Source of the DNA: a virus
Length of the DNA stretch: 64,000 nucleotides
Virus record (IMG/VR): IMGVR_UViG_3300025276_000022
Strand: one strand, 5' to 3'
Part shown: positions 6,832-41,236 of the stretch, piece after piece
Layout of the letters: each line of letters begins with the position of its first letter
Numbering within the stretch: the stretch's first letter is position 1
Notes under the pieces: generated by a model
What the model was told of the DNA's origin: nothing
Seen by the model: the letters and a program-made list of their open reading frames with translations, nothing else
Database searches by the model: none
Made by a program: the position numbers and the translations under genes

Positions 6832-8552
6832 TTAAATTTGAAACCTTACGTTGGAAGAACTTTCTTTCAACAGGCGACTACTATAATGAGATAAACTTCC
6901 TAGACAGTTCTACCAACTTAATCGTTGGTGAGAATGGTGCAGGGAAATCTACAATGCTCGATGCGTTATCGTTTGCATTATTCGGTAAGGCCCATCGGAA
7001 GATTACTAAGAACCAATTAGTCAATACGATTAATAATAAAGGGTGTATTACCGAAGTAACCTTTACTGTGAATAGTGTACAGTATCGTATTGTACGTGGA
7101 ATCAAACCTGCCAAGTTTGAGATCTGGAAAGGTGGGAGCATGATTAATCAGAGTTCCCACGCAAGAGAATACCAAGAGATTCTTGAGAAGAACGTCATAC
7201 AGATGTCTCACAAGAGTTTTCACCAAATTGTTGTCCTCGGCTCGTCGTCTTTTATCCCGTTCATGCAACTCAACTCGACCTCTCGACGTGACGTGATAGA
7301 AGACCTCCTTGACATTAATATCTTCTCAAAGATGAATACTTTACTCAAGGAAAAGACCTCTCTCTTAAAAGGCGAGCTCGAGCACAACACCCACGGTATT
7401 GAAATGATCAAGACTAGGATCAATTCTCAAAAGAAGTATATCCGTGATCTGACTGCTATCAACACTCAACATCGTAAAGATAAAGAGGGTGATATCTCTG
7501 AACTGCATACTGAGATTGAAGAACTAAATGCGGTGAACAGTACTATGTCTGCGACGGTTAACGATTTGCTCCCTACTGTCACCGATAGTTTGTCTACTCT
7601 TCGTGCAAAAAAACAGATACTAGATCAGTACTATGCGCAATTTAAGAATCAGGTAAAGACTGTAGTCAAGGAAGCAAAGTTCTTTGATGATAATGAGCAT
7701 TGTCCTACGTGTGACCAAGACATCGCAGAAGAGTTACGTCAAGAGAAAAAGCACTCTGCGACTTCTAAAGCGAAAGAGCTCAAAGGCACAATGGATAAGG
7801 CTGAAGTTCAACGCCAAGAATATGAAGATGAGATAGTTATATTAGAGTCTCGAATGAAAGAATGCCTTGCTGATCAGAATACGTTGAACAATAACAATCA
7901 AACCATTAGTCGTTTGCAGCGGTCTATCTCTAAGATTAAATCTGATTTAGACGACATGACTACAAACTCTGGTGATATGGGTCAGGCTAATACAGACCTT
8001 ACTACACTAGACTCTGAATTGCATGACTTGACCGACAGTAAGTTCATACTTAATGAAAGAGCGTCTTATAACCGCATTGCTAGTGAGTTGTTGCGTGACA
8101 CCGGAATTAAGACTAAGATTATCCGACAGTACGTACCAGTCATTAATGAACTGACTAACAAGTACTTACAGATACTAGACTTCTTTGTACACTTTGAATT
8201 GGATGATAGTTTCAGCGAAACCATCCGGTCACGATACCGAGACACGTTCTCTTATGACTCATTCTCTGAGGGTGAGAAACAACGTATTGACTTATCCCTA
8301 TTATTTACTTGGCGTAACATTGCCAAGATGAAGAATTCCATATCGACTAACTTGTTGATTTTGGATGAAACGTTCGACTCTTCGTTGGACGGTGAAGGTG
8401 TAGATAATCTTATGAAGATCATCGACACATTGAAAGAAGACACCAATGTCTTTGTAATCTCTCACAAGACTGAACTTGAGGATGCTCACTTCGAACGCAA
8501 GTTGACATTCATCAAAGATAAAAACTTCAGCCGAATGAAGGAAAGCACTTGA
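6828..8552 (+). CDS. gp46: Recombination ATPase subunit (Rad50/SbcC-like)
   Basis: GENGAGKST, CPTC hook, FSEGEKQR, LILDE. Confidence 0.97.
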   Translation: MIKFETLRWKNFLSTGDYYNEINFLDSSTNLIVGENGAGKSTMLDALSFALFGKAHRKITKNQLVNTINNKGCITEVTFTVNSVQYRIVRGIKPAKFEIWKGGSMINQSSHAREYQEILEKNVIQMSHKSFHQIVVLGSSSFIPFMQLNSTSRRDVIEDLLDINIFSKMNTLLKEKTSLLKGELEHNTHGIEMIKTRINSQKKYIRDLTAINTQHRKDKEGDISELHTEIEELNAVNSTMSATVNDLLPTVTDSLSTLRAKKQILDQYYAQFKNQVKTVVKEAKFFDDNEHCPTCDQDIAEELRQEKKHSATSKAKELKGTMDKAEVQRQEYEDEIVILESRMKECLADQNTLNNNNQTISRLQRSISKIKSDLDDMTTNSGDMGQANTDLTTLDSELHDLTDSKFILNERASYNRIASELLRDTGIKTKIIRQYVPVINELTNKYLQILDFFVHFELDDSFSETIRSRYRDTFSYDSFSEGEKQRIDLSLLFTWRNIAKMKNSISTNLLILDETFDSSLDGEGVDNLMKIIDTLKEDTNVFVISHKTELEDAHFERKLTFIKDKNFSRMKEST

Positions 8553-8577
8553 CAGACGGGTGTAAACACTGTATAAT
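8549..8577 (+). promoter_or_regulatory. sigma70 promoter for gp45; -35 contains gp46 stop
   Basis: TTGACAGAC...N17-TATAAT. Confidence 0.85.
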
Positions 8578-8606
8578 GATCACCATACTAACTAAGGAAT
8601 ATAACA

Positions 8607-9284
8607 ATGGAATTATCTAGTCGCACGGTCGAGATCCTACGTAACTTCTCGACAATCAATCCAAACATCGTAGTCAATGGCGGTAACGTCCTGAAGACTA
8701 TGTCGATAGCAAAGAACATCGTCTCTCGTGCTGAGATCGAAGAAAGTTTTCCGAACACCTTCGGTATCTATGATCTCTCTGAGTTTCTATCTGTGTTGTC
8801 ATTAGTAGATCGTCCATCGATTACTTTCGGTGATAACTTCTGTACCGTATCAGACGGTAGTGGATTATCGTCGGTCAAATACTTCTACTCTGATCCAGAA
8901 ATGCTTTCTGCACCTAAGAAAGATATCGTAATGCCTGAGTGTGAAGTTAAGTTCTTGCTTACTAATGATACCCTAGGTAAGATCAAACGTGCGTCGTCTG
9001 CACTTGGTTATGACAATATCTCTATCCGTCCAAACGGAAAGTCTATTGAGATTAACGTAGTCGACGCAAATGACAAAACGTCTAACTCATATTCTGTATT
9101 AGTCGAAGGTGAATTCCCTGAATGGGATGACTTCAACTTTATCATGGGTGTGAGTAATATGAAGCTGTTAGGCGGTGACTATGAAGTATCAATCTCAACT
9201 AAATTGATATCTCACTTCAAATCAGTAAACTCAGAGACGCAATACTTCATTGCTCTCGAAAAGTCATCTACCTACGGAGCATAA
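8607..9284 (+). CDS. gp45: Sliding clamp
   Basis: LS..TVEILRNFSTIN, FGIYDLSEFL, YFIALE. Confidence 0.95.
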   Translation: MELSSRTVEILRNFSTINPNIVVNGGNVLKTMSIAKNIVSRAEIEESFPNTFGIYDLSEFLSVLSLVDRPSITFGDNFCTVSDGSGLSSVKYFYSDPEMLSAPKKDIVMPECEVKFLLTNDTLGKIKRASSALGYDNISIRPNGKSIEINVVDANDKTSNSYSVLVEGEFPEWDDFNFIMGVSNMKLLGGDYEVSISTKLISHFKSVNSETQYFIALEKSSTYGA

Positions 9285-9285
9285 C

Positions 9286-9501
9286 ATGACTGAAGAACAA
9301 AAATCCCTAAATGACCTATCGAACCGTGTAGCACGATCATGTGTTGCAGTTGTCGACACAGTAGTAACACGTGGTGGTTTTAAAGGTGAAGAACTAACTA
9401 CCATCGGTCAACTACGTGACCAAGCGATCCAAGTAGTAGCACTCTATGAGACTGTTGCGAAGGCACACGCTGAAGCTGCTTCTAAACCTAAAAAGAAGTA
9501 G
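9286..9501 (+). CDS. Hypothetical protein
   Basis: ATG 9286 after GGAG; RGGFKGEEL..IG motif. Confidence 0.75.
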   Translation: MTEEQKSLNDLSNRVARSCVAVVDTVVTRGGFKGEELTTIGQLRDQAIQVVALYETVAKAHAEAASKPKKK

Positions 9502-9601
9502 ACCCTCTTATCGGTCTCTTGGTTCGCGATGTCTTTGCCCGAGATATGATTTGAATTGATTATATATATTATGACTAAATTGAATCAAGAGACCGACCTA
9601 A

Positions 9602-9868
9602 TTGTTAAAGTTAAACCCCAGTATAGCTAAAGAATCCGCAGTTCATGTATTGTCTGGGGCTATGGTCAATTACCCTCTCAATATATTTTTCCTTTGGTTA
9701 ATTATAGAACGATGGGGAATAACTGATCCGTTCTGGATAACTAACATAATTACTTGTTGGTTCTCCATCACTGCTTTCACTCGCATATATATAATAAGGT
9801 CATATGCAGAAAAACGCAAGTCAAAGAAACGCTCGGATAGCTCAGTTGGTAGAGCAGCTGACTTGTAA
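9602..9868 (+). CDS. Small two-TM membrane protein, overlaps tRNA-Thr
   Basis: Two hydrophobic segments ending FTRIYIIR; TTG start uncertain. Confidence 0.6.
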   Translation: MLKLNPSIAKESAVHVLSGAMVNYPLNIFFLWLIIERWGITDPFWITNIITCWFSITAFTRIYIIRSYAEKRKSKKRSDSSVGRAADL

Positions 9869-9906
9869 TCAGCAGGTCGCAGGTTCGACTCCTGTTCCGA
9901 GCTCCA
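9831..9906 (+). tRNA. tRNA-Thr(UGU)
   Basis: Full cloverleaf, anticodon loop CTTGTAA, TTCGA T-loop, CCA. Confidence 0.97.
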
Positions 9907-10002
9907 TTTCTTTTATTGAAAATAAGTACCCTTTACTATTTACATGAGAGGTTTATTGTAGTATAATAGCCTCATTGAATTATATTTTATTATGGAGTTA
10001 AC

Positions 10003-10947
10003 ATGAGCAATGAGTTTTTGTGGGTAGAGAAGTATCGCCCAAAGAAAGTTTCAGAAACAATCCTTCCCTCTGAGTTAAAGCAGACCTTTCAAAACATTGT
10101 AGATGGTGGAGAAATCCCAAACATGATGTTTGCTGGTACTGCTGGTACTGGTAAGACAACTGTCGCTAAGGCAATCTGTGAAGAACTAGATCTAGATTAC
10201 ATCGTGATCAACGGTTCGGAAGAAGGTAATATCGAAACACTGCGCGGCAAGATCCGTCAGTTCGCATCATCGGTCTCTCTGTCCGGTGGTTATAAAGTAG
10301 TTATCCTAGATGAGGCTGACTATCTAAATCCCCAATCAACGCAACCTGCTCTCCGTGGGTTTATCGAAGAGTTCTCTAACAACTGTCGTTTTATTATGAC
10401 TTGTAACTTCGAGAACAAGATCATCGAACCTCTTCACTCAAGATGTTCTAAGTACGCCTTTAACTTTGATAAGAAGACCATGACCTCCCTATGTGGTGGA
10501 TTCATGACGAGACTTCAAGGGATCCTCGACGGAGAAGGTGTTGAATATGATAACAAGGTTGTTGCTAATCTCATCATGAGACATGCTCCTGATTGGAGAC
10601 GTGTGTTAAACGAATGCCAGAAAGGTTCTATATCTGGTACACTGAATGTTGTTAGTAACCTCAGCGTAGATCTCTCTGACACCTACACTCAGTTGTTCAC
10701 TGCACTTCGTGAGAAGAACTTTAAGAAGATGCGATCGTGGGTAGTAAACAATATTGATGTTGAACCAGCGACAATCTTCCGTGGGGTTTACGACAAGATG
10801 TATGAACACGTCTCGCCAAATAGTATTCCTCAGTTGGTATTAATCCTCGCAGACTACCAGTACAAGAATGCGTTTGTCGCAGACCATGAGTTAAATCTTG
10901 TTGCATGTATGACCGAGGTTATGGCCAACGTGGAGATCAAACCGTGA
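10003..10947 (+). CDS. gp44: Clamp loader large subunit
   Basis: LWVEKYRP, GTGKTT, ILDEAD, SRC. Confidence 0.97.
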   Translation: MSNEFLWVEKYRPKKVSETILPSELKQTFQNIVDGGEIPNMMFAGTAGTGKTTVAKAICEELDLDYIVINGSEEGNIETLRGKIRQFASSVSLSGGYKVVILDEADYLNPQSTQPALRGFIEEFSNNCRFIMTCNFENKIIEPLHSRCSKYAFNFDKKTMTSLCGGFMTRLQGILDGEGVEYDNKVVANLIMRHAPDWRRVLNECQKGSISGTLNVVSNLSVDLSDTYTQLFTALREKNFKKMRSWVVNNIDVEPATIFRGVYDKMYEHVSPNSIPQLVLILADYQYKNAFVADHELNLVACMTEVMANVEIKP

Positions 10948-11324
10948 GTCCTTTTGACTTCGTGAAAAGTATTAATGACACTAAGATTAATCTAATAGAT
11001 CAGGACAAAGGTAACGCCAAATACTATAATGGTTTTGTTATAAATAGATCTTTATCATATTTTCCAGATACCGTCATATTATCTAACGAAATGAATAGAT
11101 TGCACCATTTAGATGCCAAGATGCAATATGACTTTCTTATAAATATTGTAAGGAAAAAGAAGAGATTCTCTAAATGGGATAAACCTGAGCAAAGAGCGGA
11201 CATTGAATGTATCAAAGAATATTTTGGATACAGTGAACAAAAAGCAAAGCAAGTGATAGGGCTCTTAACAGAATCACAAATAAAAACCATAACTCAAAAG
11301 GTTACTAAAGGTGGAAGAGAATAA
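10944..11324 (+). CDS. gp62: Clamp loader small subunit
   Basis: GTG overlapping gp44 stop; SPFDFVKSIN...QYDFLIN..RKKKRFSKW. Confidence 0.92.
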   Translation: MSPFDFVKSINDTKINLIDQDKGNAKYYNGFVINRSLSYFPDTVILSNEMNRLHHLDAKMQYDFLINIVRKKKRFSKWDKPEQRADIECIKEYFGYSEQKAKQVIGLLTESQIKTITQKVTKGGRE

Positions 11325-11721
11325 TCTAGTTCAATGGAATTCGGACATGATGTTAGAAATCAGTCTGTCTGAACCTGACGACTTTTTAAAAGTCAGAGAA
11401 ACTCTAACGCGTATAGGTGTTGCCTCTCGTAGAGATAACACACTATACCAATCTTGTCATATCTTGCACAAACAGGGTAGGTACTTTATCGTCCACTTTA
11501 AAGAATTATTTTTATTGGACGGGAAGAAATCTAATCTAGAAACAACAGATATGGAAAGACGTAATACAATTGCCACCCTGCTTGCAGACTGGGGTTTAGT
11601 TGGAATAGTTAATAAAGAAGTCGCACGTGAATGTGCACCAATGAGACAGATCAAGATCATCTCGTTTAAAGATAAGTCTGAATGGACTCTGCAACCAAAA
11701 TACAACATTGGAAATAGTTAA
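11311..11721 (+). CDS. regA: Translational repressor RegA
   Basis: DFLKVRETLTRIG...LYQSCHILHKQGRYFIVHFKELF. Confidence 0.97.
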   Translation: MEENNLVQWNSDMMLEISLSEPDDFLKVRETLTRIGVASRRDNTLYQSCHILHKQGRYFIVHFKELFLLDGKKSNLETTDMERRNTIATLLADWGLVGIVNKEVARECAPMRQIKIISFKDKSEWTLQPKYNIGNS

Positions 11722-11734
11722 GAGAGATTAAATT

Positions 11735-12271
11735 ATGATAGGTTATGGAATATTTGAAGAACGTGATGATTTTATTAAGAACAAGAAACCGTTCTTTGGT
11801 AAGTTGCCGATAGACGTTCCTGCAACGTTTGATTGGAATATGTATATGGAACTGATGGATAGTCATCCAGAAGAATTATATGATCGTAATACAAAGAAGA
11901 TGCGGCTAGGATTGAATTCATTTCATTCTCGTCCATCAGCACCTCAGTTTGCTAAAGACATTGTTGCTGAGATGGAAGACTTTTTTACTCTACATGCAGG
12001 AAAGATTACTAATATTGCGTTTAGTGGGTTTGGTCGTGAGAGCGATAGTTACCCATGGCACAATGATTCTATGGACGTGTTCTTATGTCAGGCTATCTCG
12101 ACTATAGGTCTACGAGTGGAAGGTGTTAATAATGATGAGAAATTCGATTTTAAACCAGGCGACTATGTTTGGATTCCAAGAGGAACTCATCACCAGATCA
12201 TCCCTACAGACTCGCGAGTAACATTCTCGTTTGGTGTTGAAGGTGATCCAGATCCCTCGATGTATTTCTAG
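11735..12271 (+). CDS. JmjC/cupin-type 2OG oxygenase
   Basis: WHNDSMDV...Q, PGDYVWIPRGTHH, RVTFSF. Confidence 0.75.
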   Translation: MIGYGIFEERDDFIKNKKPFFGKLPIDVPATFDWNMYMELMDSHPEELYDRNTKKMRLGLNSFHSRPSAPQFAKDIVAEMEDFFTLHAGKITNIAFSGFGRESDSYPWHNDSMDVFLCQAISTIGLRVEGVNNDEKFDFKPGDYVWIPRGTHHQIIPTDSRVTFSFGVEGDPDPSMYF

Positions 12272-12325
12272 GATCTAAGTAGTAAAATAACTTTAAGTTA
12301 TTACTATTATTAAAGTTATAAGTTG

Positions 12326-12333
12326 TATAAATA
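12326..12333 (+). promoter_or_regulatory. Late promoter for hsp20
   Basis: TATAAATA followed by leader hairpin 12338-12362. Confidence 0.85.
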
Positions 12334-12398
12334 GTAGGGATGTGCCGAATCGTCGGGCATCCATTTTAAACTTGCTAACTAATTTAGGAGTTAACGAC

Positions 12399-12881
12399 AT
12401 GACATTAACAGCAAAAACTATATTTCCTCGTTCAGCATTCGTTGGTTTTGATACAATGATTGATGACATGGATCGTATTACACGGCACTCGAATGACACA
12501 TTCCCTCCGCACAATATTTTAAAGACGGGTGAGGATCAATACCTAATTGAGCTTGCAGTAGCTGGATTCAGCGAAGAAGAGCTTGAAATCGAAGTAAAGA
12601 ACCGAACACTGACCATTCGAGGTCGCCATAAAGATACAGGTAGAGAGTATATCCATAAGGGTATATCACAAAAAAGATTCGAACGACAATTTAGGCTGTC
12701 GGAGTATGTTGAAGTAATGGGAGCTGATTTCAGTCAAGGACTATTGGCCGTCATATTGGAAGTAGTGGTACCTGAAAGTCAGAAGCCTCGTCAAATAGCA
12801 ATTAACGGAACTCAAAAACTGAGTCCCCAAATTCTTAACGAGGAGAAAATTAATGTATCAGATAAAGGAATACATGGCTAG
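12399..12881 (+). CDS. hsp20: Small heat-shock protein (IbpA-like)
   Basis: VGFD, FPPHNI, IELAVAGF, YIHKGIS.KRFERQF; AGGAG RBS. Confidence 0.95.
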   Translation: MTLTAKTIFPRSAFVGFDTMIDDMDRITRHSNDTFPPHNILKTGEDQYLIELAVAGFSEEELEIEVKNRTLTIRGRHKDTGREYIHKGISQKRFERQFRLSEYVEVMGADFSQGLLAVILEVVVPESQKPRQIAINGTQKLSPQILNEEKINVSDKGIHG

Positions 12882-12975
12882 ACGCGATGCCTTCAACTTA
12901 GAAACGATGGGTTTCTTAGGTATCAACTTAGTATGTATCTGCACTGTGATTCTTTGCATATCATCTATAATGTAA
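12853..12975 (+). CDS. Small single-TM peptide (40 aa)
   Basis: AGGAG RBS; MYQIKEY...GFLGINLVCICTVILCISSIM. Confidence 0.55.
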   Translation: MYQIKEYMARRDAFNLETMGFLGINLVCICTVILCISSIM

Positions 12976-12981
12976 ATAACG

Positions 12982-13009
12982 AAAGGGAGACTTCAATCTC
13001 CCTTTTTTT
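12982..13009 (+). terminator. Rho-independent terminator
   Basis: AAAGGGAGA/TCTCCCTTT stem plus T-run. Confidence 0.85.
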
Positions 13010-13027
13010 ATGTCCCAAGGAAAGTTA

Positions 13028-13735
13028 ATGAATTACGACATTAATAAATTTGAAGAGTTCGGTTATGTTATAGTAACTGACTTTTTGTCGACTGTCGAAC
13101 ACCAACGTCTGAACGAAGAATGTGACACATATCGTAAGTACGCTGTTAGACTTTTTGATAATAGAAACGGTTGGATTATAAACTCTCCGAAAAATCCTTG
13201 TAAGTTGGACGGTGCGATGCAAAGAAGCTTGGTCTTCAGAGACTTGGGTTCTAATGATACGCTCAAGGAAGTTGCACGACAACTGCTAGATCAGAACGAC
13301 ATAGATACCTACATCTCTAAGTTTTTCCCTATGGTACCACTCGAAGGGTTTTCGGTGGGGTGGCACCAAGACAATCATTATATCAAGGCCGACCCTAGTC
13401 GTCTGATCAGTTGTGATGTATTTGTTAATGGTGCGGATAAGGAGAATGGTTGCCTACGTATTATACCTAACTCCCATACCGAAGAGTTTGACCATAACCA
13501 GAGATCACACCGTGTGTTTGACTGGATAGATATAGACGAAGAGTGTTCGACTATAGTAGACATAGAGTGTGACACTACATTCGCAGTTTTCTTTCACCCA
13601 AACCTAGTACATGGATGTTATAGAAATAGAAGTGATAGATATCGTTATAGTATTGCTTGGGAATATATTCATGAAGGATATGTTCCGAAAACACATAATG
13701 GCCATAATTCTCAGGATAGGTTACCCGTGATATGA
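13028..13735 (+). CDS. PhyH-family 2OG-Fe(II) dioxygenase
   Basis: FEEFGYVIV, WHQD, ENGCLRIIPNSH, LVHG...NRSDRYR. Confidence 0.9.
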   Translation: MNYDINKFEEFGYVIVTDFLSTVEHQRLNEECDTYRKYAVRLFDNRNGWIINSPKNPCKLDGAMQRSLVFRDLGSNDTLKEVARQLLDQNDIDTYISKFFPMVPLEGFSVGWHQDNHYIKADPSRLISCDVFVNGADKENGCLRIIPNSHTEEFDHNQRSHRVFDWIDIDEECSTIVDIECDTTFAVFFHPNLVHGCYRNRSDRYRYSIAWEYIHEGYVPKTHNGHNSQDRLPVI

Positions 13736-14532
13736 AAGCAATACAGATTGTAATAAAAGGTGACGAACGATCAGAAGAATATGCACATCTTTCTAGACGT
13801 TCTTTCCAACGTGCCATCGACGATGGTTACATCGACTCCATCGAAACCTTCGATGCGATCACCCCCCAATCAGAAGACTTCCAAGAACATGTAGATAAGT
13901 ACACGTGGGATAAGAGTCTGATGACTCTAGATACACTTTCCGGAAAGGGTAAGGATGATCATTCCCCTACAGAGAAAGCTGGGATGTGTTCTCACTGGGA
14001 ACTTATGCGTCAACAAGGAGAGTCAGACGAGAAGTTCTGGATCATGGAACACGACACTTGGTTGATAGAAGAACGTTATGAAGCGTTTAAACTTCTCTCG
14101 GAGTACTCTGAAAACACCCTCTATGCGAACATTGGACTATTCATGGGCATGTACTGCATGGACAAAGGGTTTGCTCACTGGAGTCAACACATGTTGACCA
14201 ACAACGATTTTCCTATAAACTGCGGCCCATACTGCGTTTTACAACGTCTTTTCAGAACATACACAACTGACTACCTTACTCGCCCAGAAATAAATTATTA
14301 CGGAATTCGCAATACCGCCTTGCATCCTTGGTCTGGATGTGATACAATAGGCGTAGGTCGTGACATTGGAGTTTACTTTAATTTATTTGACGAACATAAT
14401 ACTGGTATCCCAACACCAACAACTCAGTTGATTTCAAAACGTCTGAGTGTGACTCAAGACCACCATGGCTATAAAGATACGCATATACAAGAACCTTGGA
14501 CTAGACACAAATTCTTTAAGGTAATTGATTGA
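13732..14532 (+). CDS. GT25-like glycosyltransferase
   Basis: FDAITP, EKAGMCSHWELM...IMEHD resembles GT25 GC.LSH...LEDD. Confidence 0.65.
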   Translation: MKAIQIVIKGDERSEEYAHLSRRSFQRAIDDGYIDSIETFDAITPQSEDFQEHVDKYTWDKSLMTLDTLSGKGKDDHSPTEKAGMCSHWELMRQQGESDEKFWIMEHDTWLIEERYEAFKLLSEYSENTLYANIGLFMGMYCMDKGFAHWSQHMLTNNDFPINCGPYCVLQRLFRTYTTDYLTRPEINYYGIRNTALHPWSGCDTIGVGRDIGVYFNLFDEHNTGIPTPTTQLISKRLSVTQDHHGYKDTHIQEPWTRHKFFKVID

Positions 14533-14540
14533 TAAGGGGG

Positions 14541-14569
14541 TTGACAGACAGCGCTAAATAATGTATAAT
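14541..14569 (+). promoter_or_regulatory. sigma70 promoter for the modification cluster
   Basis: TTGACAGAC...N17-TATAAT. Confidence 0.85.
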
Positions 14570-14595
14570 GTATATTAAATCGTGAAAGGTCTTAT

Positions 14596-15744
14596 ATGAA
14601 TTATCAACCATACAATCTCCAAGATGTCTATGACGCGGCATCTCAGAAAAAATTTAAAGTAGTGTCTACGTTCGCTGGCGGTGGTGGTTCATCCACTGGA
14701 TACCGACTGGCAGGTGCTGACATTCTCGCAGTTAACGAGTTCGTCGAAGAAGCACGGGTCACCTATAAAGAGAACTATCCGGACACTCCAATTCTTCCCG
14801 ACGATATCAAACAACTATCTGGTAAAGATTTCCTAGAGCTCACTGGTCTCAAGAAAGGTGAACTGGATATTCTTGACGGATCTCCTCCTTGCTCTGCATT
14901 TTCTGTTGCAGGCAAACTCTCTCATTCATCTGATGGTAAACACTCTGATGGTTGGGGACAGACCAAGTCCTATAGTGACGGTAAGATTGTCGAGAACATC
15001 GAAGACTTGTTCTTTGAGTTCTTACGTGTAGCTAAAGAAATCTCCCCCAAGGTAATCATCGCAGAGAATGTTAAAGGTCTGACCATTGGTGAGGCAAAAG
15101 AATACTACAACCGCATCCTTAATGAATTCGAGAATATTGGATATGAGGTTGTCTCTGAGGTTATGGATTCTCGTTACTACGGTGTCTCTCAGACTCGTAC
15201 TCGTGTAATCTTCATTGCCGTAAGACAAGATGTTGCCGACGAGGTTGGGTTAAACTTCCTAACTATGAATCACTTGTTCCCTGCACCAAGCCGCACAGCG
15301 ATCCCTCTCAAGGATGTTCTGGTTGGTCTGGAGTATGATAACGAAGAAGTCGAGTACCTAACAGAGAAGTTCGAAAGAACTGCGTACTGGAAAGATACTG
15401 GATCTCTGATGCCAACCTTTCCTGATAAAGTTTTGACTGGGGGTGACTATCATCCGAAAGGTCACCACTTCAATCTCAAGAGAGTATCGCTCGAAGTCCC
15501 TGCCCCTACTCTTACTGCGATGGGTAGCGGAGATACTACTGCTGGTGCATTTCATTGGAGTGATCCAAGAAAGTTGACACTAGGTGAATTAAAGCGTATA
15601 ATGTCACTACCCGATGACTTTAAACTAACGGGCAAGTGGAACCAGAAGGCAGAACGTATTGGTCGTATGGTACCACCATTAATGATGAAACAGATTGCTG
15701 AGTCAGTCTATGATAACGTATTGAAGGTATATAATGAAAGATAG
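14596..15744 (+). CDS. C5-cytosine DNA methyltransferase homolog, predicted carboxymethyltransferase
   Basis: Motifs I FAGGGG, IV GSPPC, VI ENVKG, VIII QTRTR; motif X GRMVPP instead of GN(A/S)VPP. Confidence 0.92.
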   Translation: MNYQPYNLQDVYDAASQKKFKVVSTFAGGGGSSTGYRLAGADILAVNEFVEEARVTYKENYPDTPILPDDIKQLSGKDFLELTGLKKGELDILDGSPPCSAFSVAGKLSHSSDGKHSDGWGQTKSYSDGKIVENIEDLFFEFLRVAKEISPKVIIAENVKGLTIGEAKEYYNRILNEFENIGYEVVSEVMDSRYYGVSQTRTRVIFIAVRQDVADEVGLNFLTMNHLFPAPSRTAIPLKDVLVGLEYDNEEVEYLTEKFERTAYWKDTGSLMPTFPDKVLTGGDYHPKGHHFNLKRVSLEVPAPTLTAMGSGDTTAGAFHWSDPRKLTLGELKRIMSLPDDFKLTGKWNQKAERIGRMVPPLMMKQIAESVYDNVLKVYNER

Positions 15745-16453
15745 AGAAAGCACAACCCATAGAGATTTTACATTCGGTCACCGCGAAGAAGGTTTCGATA
15801 ATCATATCGATGCTTCGATTCGCCACTACTCCTCACTACACGATGACGTAGTAAACTTATCTCGTTACTTTGTAGAGAACGATACTAAGGTTGTAGACAT
15901 TGGATGTAGTACAGGTAAGACCATCGAAGCCATGGTCAAACAGAATCATGAAACTGCGCCCAATGCACATTACTGTGGTGTTGAGTATGCCGAAGTGTTT
16001 CAAGCAGAGATGACTGATCGAGAAAAGAGACTTAATGGTGAAGGTCATCATATCTGTTTTCAAAACAAGAACATCATCCACCACAACTTTTCAAACTGTT
16101 CTCTTGTAACTTCTATCTTCACGTTGCAGTTCATGCAACCGCTATGGAGAAAGAAGGTAATGCAAAACATCTATGATGGTCTTAACGAAGGCGGTGCGTT
16201 CATCTTTGCCGAGAAGACTTATTCAGAGAACTCACGTATCCAAGATATGATAACCTCTACGTTCTATGAGTACAAAGCAGAGCACTTCACCTATGAAGAT
16301 ATTATGGAGAAAGAGAAGACTCTCCGAACTATGTTGAAACCAATGACTTGGAACGAGCTTGTCGCTCTACTAACCTCAGTTGGTTTTGATTCGACAAAGA
16401 TTCAACCGTTCTGGATGAATCATTTGTTCGTCGGTGCTATTGCAATAAAGTAA
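15734..16453 (+). CDS. cmoA: CmoA-like carboxy-S-adenosylmethionine synthase
   Basis: Collinear with CmoA: FTF, DIGCSTG, FTLQF, IYDGLNEGGAFIFAEK, K...L, GF...F...A.K. Confidence 0.8.
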   Translation: MKDRESTTHRDFTFGHREEGFDNHIDASIRHYSSLHDDVVNLSRYFVENDTKVVDIGCSTGKTIEAMVKQNHETAPNAHYCGVEYAEVFQAEMTDREKRLNGEGHHICFQNKNIIHHNFSNCSLVTSIFTLQFMQPLWRKKVMQNIYDGLNEGGAFIFAEKTYSENSRIQDMITSTFYEYKAEHFTYEDIMEKEKTLRTMLKPMTWNELVALLTSVGFDSTKIQPFWMNHLFVGAIAIK

Positions 16454-16472
16454 ATTATTTAGCTATAAGCCC

Positions 16473-16501
16473 TTGACTTTTGTTTCGAAAAGAGGTATAA
16501 T
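16473..16501 (+). promoter_or_regulatory. Early-type sigma70 promoter cassette
   Basis: TTGACT-N17-TATAAT; CCTTGACTTTTGTTTCGAAA identical to 59022 copy; GAGAGAGA leader. Confidence 0.85.
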
Positions 16502-16539
16502 AGGTACTTAGTTAATCGAGTTGAGAGAGAAAATATATT

Positions 16540-18027
16540 ATGATTGCGACGAACTCTACCCACATACATAAAATTGTTTGCGAAGAACTTGTGTCTAAAT
16601 CTCATGAGGCGTACACCTACAAGTGGACTATCAAAGACCCTGATAGCAATAAAACCTATTTTTATGGTGGTCGCAGACATAACGAGTATCAGCCTAATGC
16701 GTATATGCATTCAAGTAAGAATGCTAAATTTCTTGACATTCTTAGTAAGAGTAAGGATGTAACATATGAGGTCACTTCTGTAGGTACTCATGAAGAGGCA
16801 GCGCTCGAAGAGGCTCGAATGTTAACAGACTCTAAAGCTAAGAGTTCAGAATATTGGTTTAACTCTACCAATGGTTTAGGTGGTAAAGGTGGTAAAGGTG
16901 TTGGTAAAACATTATTTTTAGACACTCTCACTAGTGAGATGAAACGTCTTATGAACGGTGAAGAAAACCTTAAACCAGACCAAGTCGGGCCTATGGGTAT
17001 CACCAAGGGCAACTACTCAAAAGCAGATTTAAGAGATATTGTTGTTATCCGACAACAATTCGTACAAACGCGTTCATACCAATTTAATTCCTCTCACGTA
17101 TCTACTTTGGCGGAAGGGTTTGATAAGAAATCTGACCCAAATGAATGGGAACCTATTGTCGTTCTTCTGGATGCTAAGGTAATAGATAACAAAGTAGTAT
17201 ATTGTGACAAAGGTGGCGTAGTTGTTATTTCAGGTAATCACCGTTCGCGTGGTTTAGTACGTTCTACTAATGGAGTATCTTTGAATGCCTATAACATTCC
17301 CCATAAGTCTTGGGAAAAATTAGACGACATAGACATGAGAACGTTATCTAATAGATTTAACCCAAACCCTGAAAAACCTGTACTCAAGCAAGACCCTGAA
17401 GCGGCCGCAGCATGGGTCTTGGGTTGGTGTGAAAATAGAGGTCTAACAAAGATTGCTGATGATGGAGTTACAAAGATACCTGATATTAAACACTCCCTCG
17501 TTAAAAAGGAACTTATCGAAGTTAATAACTACACTCAGGGCGATTTCAATAGTGTTATAAAAGAGTGCCAGAAAAAAATCGAGAAACAATTTATAGCTGA
17601 TGGAGATAATATGCTAGATTGGGCAGACGCGGCTATGTCTCTAGACCCTGTCTTAGCTGGTACCCTTGACCATTATAAAACGAGGTTAATAGACGAAGGG
17701 CAACATACCGATGTTTATAAGATTTCAGGTAAGGTTCTTAACTGGGGTAAACTCTCAGATAGGATTTATGATAAAAAACAATGCGAGATTAAGACCCATC
17801 ATAACTTATTGGTATTAGTGTACCATGCGACTAAGGAAGATATGAAGGAGTGTAAAAAGGGTCTATATAAAAAATGTAAAGTATTCTCAGATGATTTTAT
17901 TGCGGGTAAACCAGACCGTAAAATTGAGTATATGCATCTGCCTATCACCAAGTCATACCTTCAATATAAAAGCCCGTTGAAGCTTGACTATGATATTGTT
18001 TGCGATAAACTAGTAGAAGGTTTGTAA
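16540..18027 (+). CDS. GIY-YIG(Seg)-like N-terminus plus ParB/Srx-like domain protein
   Basis: AYTYKW...FYGG..H...YMHSS...E...FN; EPIVVL...VISGNHR. Confidence 0.55.
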   Translation: MIATNSTHIHKIVCEELVSKSHEAYTYKWTIKDPDSNKTYFYGGRRHNEYQPNAYMHSSKNAKFLDILSKSKDVTYEVTSVGTHEEAALEEARMLTDSKAKSSEYWFNSTNGLGGKGGKGVGKTLFLDTLTSEMKRLMNGEENLKPDQVGPMGITKGNYSKADLRDIVVIRQQFVQTRSYQFNSSHVSTLAEGFDKKSDPNEWEPIVVLLDAKVIDNKVVYCDKGGVVVISGNHRSRGLVRSTNGVSLNAYNIPHKSWEKLDDIDMRTLSNRFNPNPEKPVLKQDPEAAAAWVLGWCENRGLTKIADDGVTKIPDIKHSLVKKELIEVNNYTQGDFNSVIKECQKKIEKQFIADGDNMLDWADAAMSLDPVLAGTLDHYKTRLIDEGQHTDVYKISGKVLNWGKLSDRIYDKKQCEIKTHHNLLVLVYHATKEDMKECKKGLYKKCKVFSDDFIAGKPDRKIEYMHLPITKSYLQYKSPLKLDYDIVCDKLVEGL

Positions 18028-18894
18028 TTGATACGAGACTTACTTATCGACCACATAACAGGAAAGGTGCCGCACGATAAGGTTGCGGTACTTCTTTCTG
18101 GTGGTGTTGACAGTATCAGTGTGGCAATCGCTGCACAGGATGCTGGGAAGACTGTACACGCGTATAGTTTCCATCTCGAAGGACAACCATCTTATGACCA
18201 TGCGAAGGCAAAAGAAGTCGCAGAAATCATGGGGTGGGAGTTCACCACTATTATCGTCCCTACTGATAACCTAGTTGAAGACTGGCACCGACTAGTCAAA
18301 CATGGTTGTCGCAAGAAATCCCACTACGAAGCCGCAGTGTTTCCCTTCCTCTATTGTTATGAAAACATGTTAGAAGAATACTGTATTACTGGATGGGGTG
18401 CAGACGCCTACTTCGGTTGCAGTAAGAAAGCAATGATACGATACTCTTCTTTTAAAAAGAAGCGCAACTACGTCAAGTACTGTAAAGAGAACAACCAGAC
18501 GAGAGTTAACTGGAATGAGTTCCGTAATGCCTATCTAGACGGAGACTGTGCAGGACTACAGCAACACACCAATCTTGCAGAGAAGCATGGTAAGGTGCAT
18601 GTCACTCCATATCTAGACCCACGCGTACGCGAGTACTTTATGAAGTTTTCGTGGGAAGAACTCAACAAACCAAAACAAAAGAATATAATCCGTGAAGAAT
18701 TTAATATTGAAGATCTGTTTGGGAAAGTCAAGCCCCATATCAATCTTCAGTTGGGTAGTGGTATTGATACACTGTTCGAGACTCTTCTGGATAATCCGGA
18801 GGTAAACTATAAAAGAAGACAGCGAGTGATGGACATGTGCCGCGACTGGTACACCGATCATACTACTTCTAATCTTTCTGATTTCATGTCTTGA
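18028..18894 (+). CDS. Asparagine-synthetase-like ATP-dependent amide ligase lacking glutaminase domain
   Basis: LLSGGVDS PP-loop, TGWGADAYFG, PYLD, K.IIRE. Confidence 0.85.
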   Translation: MIRDLLIDHITGKVPHDKVAVLLSGGVDSISVAIAAQDAGKTVHAYSFHLEGQPSYDHAKAKEVAEIMGWEFTTIIVPTDNLVEDWHRLVKHGCRKKSHYEAAVFPFLYCYENMLEEYCITGWGADAYFGCSKKAMIRYSSFKKKRNYVKYCKENNQTRVNWNEFRNAYLDGDCAGLQQHTNLAEKHGKVHVTPYLDPRVREYFMKFSWEELNKPKQKNIIREEFNIEDLFGKVKPHINLQLGSGIDTLFETLLDNPEVNYKRRQRVMDMCRDWYTDHTTSNLSDFMS

Positions 18895-18925: not shown

Positions 18926-21403
18926 ATGACAAAATTTTACTCTTCTGCTATCCGTATGGGTAAGCACATTCTATATCGCGGTTACGAGAACGGCCTACAG
19001 GTCAAGAAACGTATTCCATTCCAACCTAAACTATATGTCACCAGTCAGAACGAATCTGATTGGAAGACTCTGGACGGTCTCCCCGTTGCCGAGTGCGTCT
19101 TGGACTCTATGTCTGATGCGACTGACTTCCTCAAGAAGTATGCTGATGTGCATAACTTCAAGGTATATGGTAACAACAATTACGTTGCCCAGTATATCGG
19201 TGAACAATTTCCCAATAAGATAAACTTCGACCGCGATCTAATCCGGACTGCCAATATCGATATCGAGGTTTATAGTAAGGAAGGTTTCCCTGAGCCAGGC
19301 AAGGCTGCATATCCAGTGACCTCTATTACAATGCGCAAGAATGATGGCACCTACTGGGTGTGGGCATGTGGAGACTATGTCACTACTCGTGAAGAAGTCC
19401 TCTATATCAAATGCGACAACGAGATGGATCTTCTCCGCAAGTTTATTGAGCACTGGTCTCACTACGCTCCTGACATTCTGACAGGTTGGAACAGTCGGTT
19501 CTTCGATATCCCATACATCGTTAACCGTTGCGTTAACCTGTTCGGTGATGACACGTTATTGAAACGACTATCTCCTTGGGGTGCGGTACGTGAACGTAAT
19601 GTAACTATTCAAGGTCGCGCCAATCAGGAATACGTGATTGAAGGTGTCGAGCACCTAGATTACATTGAAATCTTTAAGAAGTTCACACTCAACACTCTGG
19701 GTCAACAAGAATCCTATCGTCTAGACCATATCGCCCACGTTGTCTTGGGTGAACGCAAGTTGTCCTATGAGGAGCACGGAAACCTCCACGCTCTTTATGA
19801 AAACGACTTCCAAAAGTTTATTGACTATAACATCAAAGACGTGGAGTTGGTTCACAAGATCGATGAGAAACTCGACTTGATTACTCTGGTACTCACCATG
19901 GCATATCGTGGTGGTGTTAACTATGGTGACACACTTGGTACTACTAACATCTGGGACAGCATCATCTACCGTATGCTGAACAAGATGAAGGTCGTAGTTC
20001 CTTCCAAATCTGAGAAGCCTAAGACTTCATATCCGGGCGGTTATGTTAAAGAACCTCAAGTTGGGTCACACGACTGGGTTACCTCTTTTGATTTGGCGTC
20101 TCTATATCCCAACATCATTGTTCAATATAACATGTCACCTGAGACTGTGATGGACGGTTTCCATAATGGTGTAAGCGTCGATAAGTTTCTTGATGGATCA
20201 TACAAGGTATCTGAGTCTAACGTCTCTATTGCGCCAACTGGAGTCGCTTTCTCACATGATAGAGAGGGGGTCATTCCTACGGTGATTAAACAATACTACA
20301 CGGAACGTAGTCTTATCAAGAAGGAGATGTTGAAACTCCAGCAGGAATACCAGAAGAATCCGACTAATGCTTTGGCCTATAGGATATCGTCACTGGACAA
20401 CCAACAGATGGCTATCAAGATTCTTATGAACTCCCTCTATGGTGCGCTCGGTAATCGATACTTCCGTTACTTTGATCAACGTGTTGCAGAGTCAATTACT
20501 CTTGCAGGGCAACTTGCAATCAAATGGGCAGAGAGAGCAGCCAATAATGAGATGCAGAAACTTCTTAAAACAGATGAAGATTATGTTGTAGCAATTGACA
20601 CGGATTCTCTATACATTCGTATGTCTGCCCTTGTGGATAAGTTTTCTCCTAAAGACCCTGTAAAGTTTCTTGACAAGATATGTTCCGAGCACTTCGAGAA
20701 AGTTCTGGAAAATTCTTATAATGAGATGGCAGAAGTTACTGGTGCGTACGAGAATCGTATGGTGATGGAACGTGAGGTAATCGCAGACCGTGGTATCTGG
20801 ATGGCGAAGAAACGATATATCCTTAATGTGCATAACTCTGAGGGTGTGCAGTACGCAGAACCTAAACTCAAGATGATGGGTATCGAGGCAATCAAGTCAT
20901 CGACTCCTTCGGTTGTCCGTGACAAGATGAAAGAAATCTTCCGCGTCATTGTAGAAGGTACCGAGGAAACCACCCAGAGATTTATCCGTGAGTTCAAGAC
21001 TCTGTTTAATACATTACCACCCGAAGATGTTTCGTGGCCCCGTGGTATCTCTAATCTCGATAAGTGGAAAGACCGAGAGACTATTTTCAAGAAGGGTACT
21101 CCCATACATGTTCGCGGTGCGTTATGTTATAACAATCTAATCAAGGAGAATAATCTTGGTAATAGATATGAACTGGTCAAGCCAGGCGAGAAGGTAAAGT
21201 TCGTCTATCTAAAAGTACCGAATCGTCTGGGTGAAAACGTTGTGGCATATCCTCAACATCTCCCCGAAGAACTGGGACTGGGTAAGTATATCGATTACGA
21301 CTTAATGTTCAGTAAGACTTTCATTGCCCCTCTCGAACCAATTCTTGATGCAGTCGGTTGGGCTTCTGAACCTCGTGCCACATTGGAGGACTTCTTCGGA
21401 TGA
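18926..21403 (+). CDS. gp43: Family B DNA polymerase
   Basis: DIEV exo [44 protein letters not shown]. Confidence 0.98.
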
Positions 21404-21816
21404 TCACAGACTTTTGCGTTATATGCGGAACGAAAGAAAATCTTCATAACCATCATATTGTTTGTAAGAAGAGTAAACTGAAACCAATATCTGGCGACAT
21501 TGATCATTATACAAACCTCATAACTCTCTGTGGAGAACATCATGGGTGGATTCATGGTATGAAACCTAATAGATTCAATGACAATAACCGTTTAAGAACG
21601 GCTGGAATAAAGAAAGCACAGAAAGAAGGAAAGTATCTTGGACGTGTTCCAACTGCGCAAAGAAAGTCTAAAGAGATTCAGAGATTGCATTCAGAAGGAA
21701 TGAAACCGGCATTAATTGCAAAGGAACTCAACATAGGAGTCGCGAGTGTCTACCGATATAGAGAAAAAGAAAAAAAACAAAAGCAAATGACAGATCAAGC
21801 GCAATTCTTCGGTTGA
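21400..21816 (+). mobile_element. Free-standing HNH endonuclease with resolvase-type HTH
   Basis: CVICG...HHI...NLITLCGEHHGWIH; AGIKKAQKEGKYLGR...IAKELNIGVASVYRY; flanked by TTCTTCGG(A/T)TGA repeats. Confidence 0.75.
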
Positions 21817-34551: not shown

Positions 34552-35967
34552 ATGAAGTATAAAGTACTACTATTATCATCATCTATTTTCCTAGCATCGT
34601 GTGGTGGAGGATCTACTAGTTCCCCTGAACCGATTGCTGTTATTCCCCCAGCACCTACTCCTCTTGAGATATCTATTGGTGAGTTAAGGGATATAATGAA
34701 CGTGACCTCTCCTACAGGTTCGTACGAAGGATACATTCTCCCAGAAAGTGATGACTTCTTCAACATCCCCCAAGATCCTAGCAACCCTGTTACTTCTGAG
34801 AAAGTAGAGTTAGGTAAGTTGCTTTATCATGAAACTGGTATGACCTCGTCTGAGACTAGCAAGACCGATATGGTCGACACGTGGTCTTGTGCATCATGTC
34901 ACAATGGCCAGAACGGATTCAAGTCTGGTATTCGCCAAGGTATTGGTGAAGGTGGTGTCGGTTTTGATCACCGTACTTTCGCAGAAGGTATGGAAGAACT
35001 TGCAGACATACAACCACTAACATCTCCTACTGTATTGAATAGTGCATATCAAGAAGTGATGTTATGGAACGGTCAGTTCGGTAATGTGATGGGCGGTATA
35101 GTGAATGTGGGTATTGACCCTGAACGTCACTTCACCGAAGGTACCCCGAAGGAAGCAAACCTACGACAGTTGTCTGGTCTTGAAACACAAGCAGTTGCCG
35201 GTCTAGGTGTTCACCGAATGGATGTTACTAGTGATGAATCCATCCTTAGTAACAACGAAACCTATCAGATGATGTTTGAGGCTGCATACGGAACTTCACG
35301 ACCGACCGATATGTTAGAGGCAGCATCCTTTGCGATTGCCGCATACGAAAGAACTATCCTTGCAAACCGTGCACCATTCCAAACGTTCCTACGTGGAGAT
35401 GAGACTGCACTGTCTATAGAGGAAGTAGAAGGTGCAAAAGTATTCTTCGGTAAAGGTAACTGTGCTGGTTGCCACAACGGCCCTGCACTATCATCACCTG
35501 TAGGATCTATGGCGCAAGAAGTGTTTATGACTCTTGGTTTCCATGACTTGGATATGTGGGAAGATACTGTCGGTGAAGTTGGCCAAGCGGTAAAAGAAGG
35601 TCGTGCTGGATTTACTGGTGACAGTATGGAAAAGTTCGCGTTCAAAGTACCGCCACTTTACAATCTTATAGATACTACTGTATTCGGTCATGGTGGTTCA
35701 TTCACCAGTGTTGAAGATGTGGTAAGATATAAAGTTGCCGCAGTTCCACAACATCCACAAGTTGAAACGACTGATGTGGACTACCGTTTTGTTCCATTAG
35801 ATTTGAGTGAAGAAGATATCTCAAACTTGATTGCATTCTTAGAGCAGAGTTTGTATGATCCAGATTTGATGAGATATGTACCAGACACATTGCCTAGTGG
35901 TAACTGTGTAACCAACAATGACCAGCAGTCACAAGACGACTTAGGATGTACTGACAATGGATTATAA
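34552..35967 (+). CDS. Di-heme cytochrome c peroxidase/MauG-family lipoprotein
   Basis: Lipobox LASC; NPVTSEKVELGKLL; CASCH and CAGCH; SPTVLN; FKVPPLYNL; HGG. Confidence 0.92.
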   Translation: MKYKVLLLSSSIFLASCGGGSTSSPEPIAVIPPAPTPLEISIGELRDIMNVTSPTGSYEGYILPESDDFFNIPQDPSNPVTSEKVELGKLLYHETGMTSSETSKTDMVDTWSCASCHNGQNGFKSGIRQGIGEGGVGFDHRTFAEGMEELADIQPLTSPTVLNSAYQEVMLWNGQFGNVMGGIVNVGIDPERHFTEGTPKEANLRQLSGLETQAVAGLGVHRMDVTSDESILSNNETYQMMFEAAYGTSRPTDMLEAASFAIAAYERTILANRAPFQTFLRGDETALSIEEVEGAKVFFGKGNCAGCHNGPALSSPVGSMAQEVFMTLGFHDLDMWEDTVGEVGQAVKEGRAGFTGDSMEKFAFKVPPLYNLIDTTVFGHGGSFTSVEDVVRYKVAAVPQHPQVETTDVDYRFVPLDLSEEDISNLIAFLEQSLYDPDLMRYVPDTLPSGNCVTNNDQQSQDDLGCTDNGL

Positions 35968-40861: not shown

Positions 40862-41236
40862 ATGACTATGATGTCATTTAAAGATATGGTAAATGAAGTA
40901 CTCGACGTAGCACAACGTCGAAAACTTGCACAGCGAATGAAAAGAAATAAATCCAGAATTGCAATCGCACGTAAACGTAGCGAAAAGAAAATTGCTAACA
41001 TGGATACCCTCAAGAAACGTGCACGTCGTCAAGCACGTAATGCAATGGTCGCTAAGATCACTAAGGGTAAAGGTAAAGCGGATATGTCTATCGCTCGTAA
41101 GAAAGACATAGAAAAAAGGATGGAACGTCCTGCCGTACAATCACGTATAGATCGCCAGGCTAAGAAACTTGTAAAGGTTGTTCGTAAGCAAGAAATCGAA
41201 CGCAAAAGAAATAGGTCTAAAGGCGATAACAAGTGA
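40862..41236 (+). CDS. Highly basic protein with capsid-targeting-like N-terminus
   Basis: MSFKDMVNE then Arg/Lys-rich helix. Confidence 0.8.
   Translation: MTMMSFKDMVNEVLDVAQRRKLAQRMKRNKSRIAIARKRSEKKIANMDTLKKRARRQARNAMVAKITKGKGKADMSIARKKDIEKRMERPAVQSRIDRQAKKLVKVVRKQEIERKRNRSKGDNK

Follow-up and report, generated by a model that had tools for sequence, protein, structure and literature searches.

What would a phage do with a DNA cytosine methyltransferase, a synthase of carboxy-S-adenosylmethionine (Cx-SAM) and an amide ligase encoded together just 5′ of its DNA polymerase gene? We addressed this question for a 64,000-nucleotide stretch of viral DNA (IMG/VR record IMGVR_UViG_3300025276_000022; hereafter the window), in which four tightly packed plus-strand genes lie between a conserved gene for a 266-amino-acid (aa) protein (13732-14532) and the gp43 DNA polymerase gene (18926-21403). 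Very probably, as judged by homology, the stretch holds a cassette with which a T4-like marine phage hypermodifies its own DNA post-replicatively via a CmoA-CmoX-CmoY route. An earlier note on this DNA had listed a C5-methyltransferase gene, an overlapping CmoA-like gene and a ligase gene without a glutaminase domain, all 5′ of gp43, and we found this set in place at 14596-18894. We annotated cmoX (14596-15744, 382 aa) as encoding an orthologue of DNA cytosine C5-carboxymethyltransferase, cmoA (15734-16453, 239 aa, overlapping cmoX by 11 nucleotides) an orthologue of Cx-SAM synthase, and cmoY (18028-18894, 288 aa, TTG start) an orthologue of an ATP-dependent amide ligase acting on 5-carboxymethylcytosine (5cxmC). 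The three enzymes of the note therefore stood, but its ligase does not adjoin cmoA, since an open reading frame (ORF) of 495 aa (16540-18027, plus strand), which it had not mentioned, intervenes. Relatives of the cassette were metagenomic and IMG/VR loci, and the locus scan was made with a six-sequence alignment of the 495-aa family.

The three-enzyme pathway is not itself new, since Yang et al. (Nat Commun, December 2025; PMC12783734) have already described it in the Synechococcus phage S-B43; the caveat in the earlier note that similar clusters might already be reported was correct, and its novelty claim therefore falls. In S-B43, CmoA (SpCmoA) makes Cx-SAM from S-adenosylmethionine (SAM) and prephenate, an activity that was measured, and SpCmoX writes 5cxmC post-replicatively at GpC, accepts only Cx-SAM and is dead as an R350N mutant (PMC12783734). 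SpCmoY, an asparagine-synthetase homologue, joins glycine to the carboxylate with ATP, and virion DNA of S-B43 contains the glycyl amide, although modification was incomplete, reaching 75% of GpC sites (PMC12783734). Both SpCmoX and SpCmoY were active in E. coli and in vitro without a further partner, and 5,615 candidate CmoX sequences were counted in viral and metagenomic data (PMC12783734).

We observed that the 382-aa methyltransferase of the window matches PF00145 (E 1.8e-52) and TIGR00675, is 64% identical to SpCmoX by BLASTP and aligns over residues 5-377 with the SpCmoX crystal structure (PDB 8YF3; E 4e-154). Motifs I, IV, VI and VIII are present (FAGGGG at 26, SPPC at 96-99, ENV at 157 and QTRTR at 199), and IGRMVPP follows at 355. 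S96-P97-P98-C99 aligns column for column with the SPPC of SpCmoX (S95-C98), with Cys99 as the catalytic cysteine. Arg357, which lies in this IGRMVPP motif X and is encoded at 15664-15666 exactly as the earlier note had read it, aligns with R350 of 8YF3; in that structure Arg350 contacts the Cx-SAM carboxylate, where M.HhaI has Asn304 (PMC12783734). The Asn-to-Arg position that the note had proposed to check was also borne out by HMMER alignments, in which Arg357 falls in the motif-X Asn column of HaeIII (KMIGNAVPV) and DNMT1 (RQIGNAVPP). All residues named in PMC12783734 are conserved (F26, E48, F49, D70, S96-P-P-C99 and R357), and the window enzyme has both SPPC and Arg, the two criteria used there for calling CmoX homologues. 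A closely related C5-methyltransferase in another locus (L011:3078-4286) has a Tet_JBP dioxygenase as its neighbour in place of CmoA, with Leu in the Arg column (ARIGLMV), a natural contrast that fits a motif-X position setting the choice of cofactor. The target of the window enzyme is probably GpC.

The best NCBIfam match of the window CmoA was TIGR00740 (E 9e-30). The protein is 52% identical to SpCmoA over 231 residues, at full length, and matched the structures of H. influenzae YecO (1IM8) and E. coli CmoA (4GEK) with E values of 6.6e-17 to 1.3e-16. The textbook role of CmoA is in tRNA modification. In agreement with the claimed absence of CmoB, the best tblastn match to E. coli CmoB within the 64-kb window covered only 17 aa (E 0.04).

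CmoY is a PP-loop protein related to the C-terminal domain of asparagine synthetase; PF00733 (Asn_synthase) matched it with an E value of 2.3e-16 from residue 18 of 288, so the protein has no glutaminase domain. Its PP-loop, SGGVDS, lies at residues 24-29, of which S24, G25, G26, D28 and S29 do not vary among 39 homologues. CmoY is 46% identical to SpCmoY and aligns with it from residue 1, which fixes the TTG start. This start follows immediately, and in the same frame, upon the TAA stop of the 495-aa gene. A read-through fusion of the two, in one frame with a single TAA between them, was considered and rejected because the alignment with SpCmoY begins at the first residue of the ORF with the TTG start, and because relatives have a 35-nucleotide gap or an overlap of 1-32 nucleotides between the two genes, not all in one frame. 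At least 271 clusters in metagenomes are homologous to CmoY.

The window proteins are clear orthologues of the S-B43 enzymes (64%, 52% and 46% identity for CmoX, CmoA and CmoY), so the three-enzyme pathway transfers by homology. The chemistry claimed earlier, in which the phage makes Cx-SAM, writes 5cxmC post-replicatively and then amidates it, is thus supported, having been shown experimentally for the S-B43 orthologues. CmoA would turn SAM and host prephenate into Cx-SAM, as its identity to SpCmoA suggests. CmoX would then flip out a cytosine, Cys99 would attack C6, and the carboxymethyl group would pass to C5, with Arg357 expected from the conservation of all named residues to hold the cofactor carboxylate. 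Finally, the PP-loop of CmoY would adenylate the carboxylate with ATP and couple an amine, a reaction type suggested by its identity to SpCmoY. The expected benefit would be phage DNA shielded from host nucleases.

Several points weigh against this reading of the cassette. Function is assigned to all window proteins by homology. CmoA scored 104.1 bits, below the 193.3-bit equivalog cut-off of TIGR00740, a model built on the bacterial tRNA-pathway CmoA. The column of E. coli CmoA Arg199, a contact with the cofactor carboxylate, holds Glu in the window CmoA. The same Glu is present in every phage CmoA aligned, together with a shared invariant Arg four residues downstream, and the feature does not separate active phage enzymes because the active SpCmoA also has it. 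CmoY, at 46% identity the furthest of the three enzymes from its S-B43 counterpart, carries an insertion of 15 residues relative to SpCmoY. The GpC specificity of CmoX is assumed from its 64% identity. We also looked for a footprint of the cassette in base composition: GpC is the most under-represented dinucleotide in the window (odds 0.80, and 0.67 in 8001-16000), about 16% of window cytosines lie in GpC, and the odds were 0.64-0.80 in the examined stretches of cassette-bearing relatives. We rejected this depletion as a footprint, since the phage C48C1, with no cassette at the locus, was similar (0.85 in the examined 20-kb stretch versus 0.80).

Two other readings of the three enzymes were considered. 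CmoX might be an ordinary 5-methylcytosine enzyme, with the CmoA-like and ligase genes serving RNA or metabolite chemistry, a reading that draws on the tRNA role of CmoA and on a TIGR00740 match that lies below the cut-off. We consider it very improbable: SpCmoX takes only Cx-SAM and R350N is dead (PMC12783734), the window enzyme retains the Arg and all cofactor contacts, the 64-kb window has no CmoB, and many phages keep the three genes closely together. The amine used by the window CmoY appears to be the least certain step. Within the same pathway, CmoY could couple 5cxmC to another amino acid, ammonia or a polyamine, and the final base would then be unlike that of S-B43. The divergence and insertion of CmoY speak for such a difference, as does the report of ligase clusters with differing pocket residues, for which further amines are expected (PMC12783734). 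We nevertheless regard another amine as doubtful. The largest ligase cluster in that study, of which SpCmoY is a member, holds together at about 30% identity, and its predicted ligand is glycine or an alpha-amino acid (PMC12783734); at 46% identity, well above this threshold, the window CmoY falls in the SpCmoY cluster. The lack of a glutaminase domain, moreover, makes glutamine-derived ammonia unlikely. A CmoA-CmoX-CmoY route of the S-B43 type remains the reading that we prefer.

How did the cassette come to lie beside gp43? The nearest sequenced phage is C48C1 (Kyanoviridae), whose gp43 is 73% identical to that of the window and whose 266-aa gene stands directly beside gp43, with no cassette there. 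Judged by comparison of these loci, the cassette is a 4.3-kb accessory island. The gene-neighbourhood co-occurrence that the earlier note had wished to see surveyed is real, with the three genes linked in at least 15 metagenomic loci and in two different orders. The layout of the window (266 aa-cmoX-cmoA-[495 aa]-cmoY-gp43) recurs in L003/L004, L009 and L026, and a second layout (gp43-[495-aa homologue]-cmoY-cmoX-cmoA) was found in L007 and L027-L034; the gp43 proteins of the two layouts are only about 43% identical to each other. Megablast of the cassette against a cultured-phage collection gave no match.

The cassette is also rich in putative sigma-70-type promoter sites, all on the plus strand. 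A perfect TTGACA-17-TATAAT site (12/12) lies upstream of cmoX at 14541-14569, a second perfect one (12/12) lies inside the 3′ part of cmoX at 15574-15602, 130 nucleotides before the cmoA start, and a TTGACT-17-TATAAT site (11/12) lies upstream of the 495-aa gene at 16473-16501. Altogether, four perfect TTGACA-17-TATAAT sites occur in 9 kb, with first hexamers at 14541, 15574, 18891 and 21813, before cmoX, cmoA, gp43 and the primase gene; those of gp43 and the primase gene stop only a few bases short of the ATG. These promoter-like sites suggest early transcription of the cassette. We found no site of comparable quality before cmoY, and the 495-aa gene and cmoY therefore probably share one transcript.

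Genes on both flanks of this region also drew our attention. Just upstream of the cassette, between hsp20 and the 266-aa gene, lies a gene for a PhyH-type 2-oxoglutarate-Fe(II) oxygenase (13010-13735; PF05721, E 3.8e-26), which is also present in L019 and is absent at the same place in C48C1 and L004. That this oxygenase might act on the modified base, for example by oxidising the glycyl amide, is pure speculation. On the other side, a 138-aa ORF (21400-21816) overlaps the gp43 stop, has weak matches to HNH and to resolvase-type helix-turn-helix (HTH) domains, and looks like a homing endonuclease; C48C1 has a DNA methyltransferase at this position.

What, then, is the fourth gene of the cassette? 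The 495-aa protein itself had no Pfam, NCBIfam or PHROG match; in its family, three of 39 members matched PF01541 (GIY-YIG) or PF19835 (SegE_GIY-YIG), with E values of 7.5e-05 to 0.003. An AlphaFold2 model built on 39 homologues reached a mean predicted local distance difference test score (pLDDT) of 91.4. In this model, residues ~2-110 are predicted to form a GIY-YIG nuclease fold, with matches (VIA-align) to I-TevI (Z 6.3), PD-T4-3 (4.9), the N-terminal domain of UvrC (in the range 4.3-4.9) and T4 EndoII (4.3); the match to the I-TevI catalytic domain aligned 80 residues at a root-mean-square deviation of 2.9. A Gly/Lys linker follows this domain. Residues ~146-280 are predicted to form a ParB/sulfiredoxin (Srx) fold, matching PadC (Z 7.7), KorB (7.4), pNOB8 ParB (6.9) and sulfiredoxin (6.6), and the top ten Foldseek matches of the model were all ParB, Noc or KorB (probability 0.93-1.00). 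The Z values are middling, but they are consistent by family. A ParB motif of the G-x-x-R type reads SGNHRSRG at 231-238; at the profile level the ParB domain had no PF02195 (ParB_N) match and gave only PF18763 (E 0.071). Residues ~283-351 resemble a winged helix and residues ~365-483 an alpha/beta domain, each with weak matches.

Across the 39 sequences of the family, Y42, Y55, E91, N108, R178 and N274 are invariant, and for R45 and H47 this holds only within the six closest homologues. Y42, Y55, E91 and N108 are the kinds of residue that GIY-YIG catalysis uses, an inference from mapping onto I-TevI by eye. The family is rare: 5.8 billion proteins yielded six clusters, and a set of 1.8 billion yielded 67 representatives at E<=1e-3. 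Tblastn of the protein against cultured phages gave no match, so it is known only from metagenomes. It also diverges faster than its neighbours, at 38-53% identity where CmoX is at 85-88%.

The genomic context of this gene was informative. In every sufficiently long locus of close relatives, and in both layouts, cmoY lies directly 3′ of the 495-aa gene. More distant homologues occur in a cluster with a C5-methyltransferase and a TET/JBP protein (L011), with a TET-associated glycosyltransferase (L015), and with P-loop and APH-like kinases and a nucleotidyltransferase (L017). In the closest relatives (CmoY 92% identical), an unrelated protein of ~300 aa (299 aa; L019:8102-9001) takes its place between cmoA and cmoY. 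The family of this protein is common (at least 125 clusters), with an invariant DG...E.QHR motif and without a recognisable nuclease domain. In its model (pLDDT 88.6) the N-terminal part adopts a ParB/Srx fold, with Z values of 6.4 for sulfiredoxin, 5.4 for SerK, 5.1 for PadC and 4.8 for BrxU, and a Foldseek probability of 0.98 for PadC. In another lineage, the slot holds a 508-aa protein (L022:5482-7008) whose closest neighbours by language model are viral clusters of the HNH and GmrSD_N types; as a lead from language-model features only, it resembles GmrSD-like enzymes that combine a ParB fold with HNH. Pfam gave no matches for the ~300-aa and 508-aa proteins, and hhalign found no similarity between the 495-aa family and the 299-aa and 508-aa proteins (probability 0.2). 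Thus, only ParB/Srx-fold proteins, some with and some without a nuclease domain, seem to occupy the slot before cmoY. ParBc-domain genes have been counted in 1,660 contigs among those with the 5,615 candidate CmoX, and their role was given as unknown (PMC12783734). A phage thymine dioxygenase depends on a cognate ParB homologue for activity on double-stranded DNA (PMC13229309), and a term search found GIY neither in that study nor in a survey of ParB-fold fusions (PMC12704722). S-B43 has no gene of the 495-aa type.

The 495-aa gene belongs to the cassette and is tightly coupled to cmoY; as possible roles, we weigh a nuclease and an activator about equally, and a homing endonuclease with less weight. 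The protein could be a nuclease that spares hypermodified phage DNA and cuts unmodified DNA of the host or of a co-infecting phage without the cassette, so that it would form a restriction-modification-like pair with CmoX and CmoY. We hold this possible, with the balance against it, and say the same of the finer picture in which the ParB/Srx domain would be a nucleoside-triphosphate-dependent DNA clamp or sensor and the GIY-YIG domain the blade. T4 EndoII cuts deoxycytidine-containing DNA and PD-T4-3 is specific for 5-hydroxymethylcytosine. The GIY-YIG fold matches both of these enzymes as well as I-TevI, and the Tyr, Glu and Asn residues that are invariant in the 39 members appear, by the mapping above, to be of catalytic type. 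A nuclease would also suit the distant homologues in other DNA-modification clusters (L011, L015 and L017), the likeness (in language-model features only) of the 508-aa slot protein to GmrSD-type ParB-fold and HNH restriction enzymes, and the faster evolution of the 495-aa protein. The nuclease activity is nevertheless predicted from a fold, the commonest occupant of the slot is the ~300-aa protein without a recognisable nuclease domain, S-B43 has no such gene, and a modification confined to GpC, at 75% of sites in S-B43, would make self-protection leaky.

Alternatively, similar to the ParB-like activators of phage thymine dioxygenases, the protein might load on DNA and activate or recruit CmoY (or CmoX) on the duplex. 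SpCmoX and SpCmoY function without a partner in E. coli and in vitro, S-B43 has none, and it is hard to see why an activator would require a GIY-YIG domain whose residues of catalytic type are conserved, so we entertain the activator only as a tentative option. It draws on the 495-then-cmoY order, which is kept and tightly packed in both layouts in spite of gp43 proteins that are ~43% identical, on the lack of a separate strong promoter-like site before cmoY, and on the other ParB/Srx-fold proteins that fill the slot in relatives. The ParB homologue needed by a cognate dioxygenase on double-stranded DNA (PMC13229309) and the ParBc genes in 1,660 CmoX-bearing contigs (PMC12783734) point the same way. 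We think it unlikely that the gene is a selfish, free-standing homing endonuclease lodged in the cassette, where it would take no part in modification and at most help the island to spread. In T4-like phages, enzymes of the GIY-YIG and HNH types are the textbook examples of free-standing homing endonucleases, and the gene has its own promoter-like site and diverges fast; what occupies the slot varies between close relatives (the 299-aa protein where CmoY is 92% identical), and another HNH/HTH ORF lies just 3′ of gp43. Yet all contexts of the family that are informative are DNA-modification clusters, instead of being dispersed over the core genes, and the gene stays next to cmoY when the cassette is rearranged. 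The protein is, moreover, about twice as large as Seg-type enzymes and carries a ParB/Srx domain besides.

Taking the nuclease and activator readings together, we tentatively propose, as an idea that could well prove wrong, a fourth functional component of the carboxymethyl-cytosine cassettes of T4-like marine phages that is absent from the published three-enzyme model: a ParB/Srx-fold protein, encoded immediately 5′ of cmoY, that would read the modification state of DNA. It would be fused here to an apparently active GIY-YIG domain and be ParB-only or a GmrSD-like ParB-HNH protein in relatives, and it would either destroy unmodified DNA or load the ligase on the duplex. With the same protein family serving TET, glycosyltransferase and kinase-based clusters, it would be a general module of post-replicative DNA hypermodification.

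Elsewhere in the window, we noted an unusual auxiliary gene for a di-haem cytochrome c peroxidase homologue (34552-35967; PF03150 CCP_MauG, E 3.2e-23). The N-terminus of a 559-aa protein (41233-42912) weakly resembles cytidylyltransferases, and the protein also matches DUF5824, as does a protein encoded close to the L011 TET cluster.

Through this pathway, which was recognised only recently, phages give their DNA a reactive carboxylate handle and then decorate it; it bears on conflict between phage and host and is of interest as a source of enzymes for DNA labelling. This locus is a second, diverged natural example, from another T4-like lineage, in a different gene order and on a movable island by the DNA polymerase gene, and it therefore supports the published claim of a widespread system (PMC12783734). 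The GIY-YIG/ParB-fold gene tied to cmoY and the ParB/Srx-fold slot are new leads. If the protein proved to be a modification-aware nuclease or an activator, this would explain the ParBc neighbours and link the carboxymethyl route with the hypermodification systems based on TET and on kinases.

How does the cassette compare with known systems? The S-B43 system, likewise from a T4-like marine phage, has the same three families (CmoX 64%, CmoA 52% and CmoY 46% identical), SPPC and Arg, an intact PP-loop and no CmoB. The two differ in gene order and site (X-A-[495 aa]-Y beside gp43 in the window, A-Y-X at an unrelated site away from gp43 in S-B43), in the extra GIY-YIG/ParB-fold gene and the 15-residue insertion in CmoY, and in lineage, the window gp43 being ~46% identical to cyanophage gp43 proteins; the window product is predicted from its genes. 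In the engineered M.MpeI N374K (cited in PMC12783734), a positive residue in place of the motif-X Asn likewise lets a C5-methyltransferase use Cx-SAM, whereas the window enzyme is natural, has Arg instead of Lys, probably targets GpC instead of CpG, and would receive Cx-SAM from a phage CmoA. Clusters of C5-methyltransferase, TET (5mYOX) and glycosyltransferase (PMC8256090; bioRxiv 10.1101/2023.12.21.572611) are also post-replicative and GpC-directed and also build a C5 handle before decorating it, with related methyltransferases and with homologues of the 495-aa protein among their genes. Their handle, however, is a hydroxyl made by oxidation of 5-methylcytosine and then decorated with sugars, whereas that of the window would be a carboxylate taken directly from Cx-SAM and then amidated.

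The 495-aa protein has parallels of its own. Like the ParB-like dioxygenase activators (PMC13229309) and the ParB-CTPase-fold fusions (PMC12704722), it has a ParB/Srx fold and its gene neighbours that of a DNA-modifying enzyme within a phage cluster; it differs in its N-terminal GIY-YIG domain, in a ParB domain that Pfam misses, and in that neither CmoX nor CmoY is known to depend on it. With T4 endonuclease II it shares the GIY-YIG fold (Z 4.3), and its combination of a ParB fold with a nuclease parallels the architecture of GmrSD, although it has no sequence-level relationship to EndoII or to the GmrSD/BrxU type IV enzymes and its domain order is unlike theirs. What it would have in common with these enzymes, as predicted from its fold, is a nuclease domain paired with the discrimination of modified from unmodified DNA.

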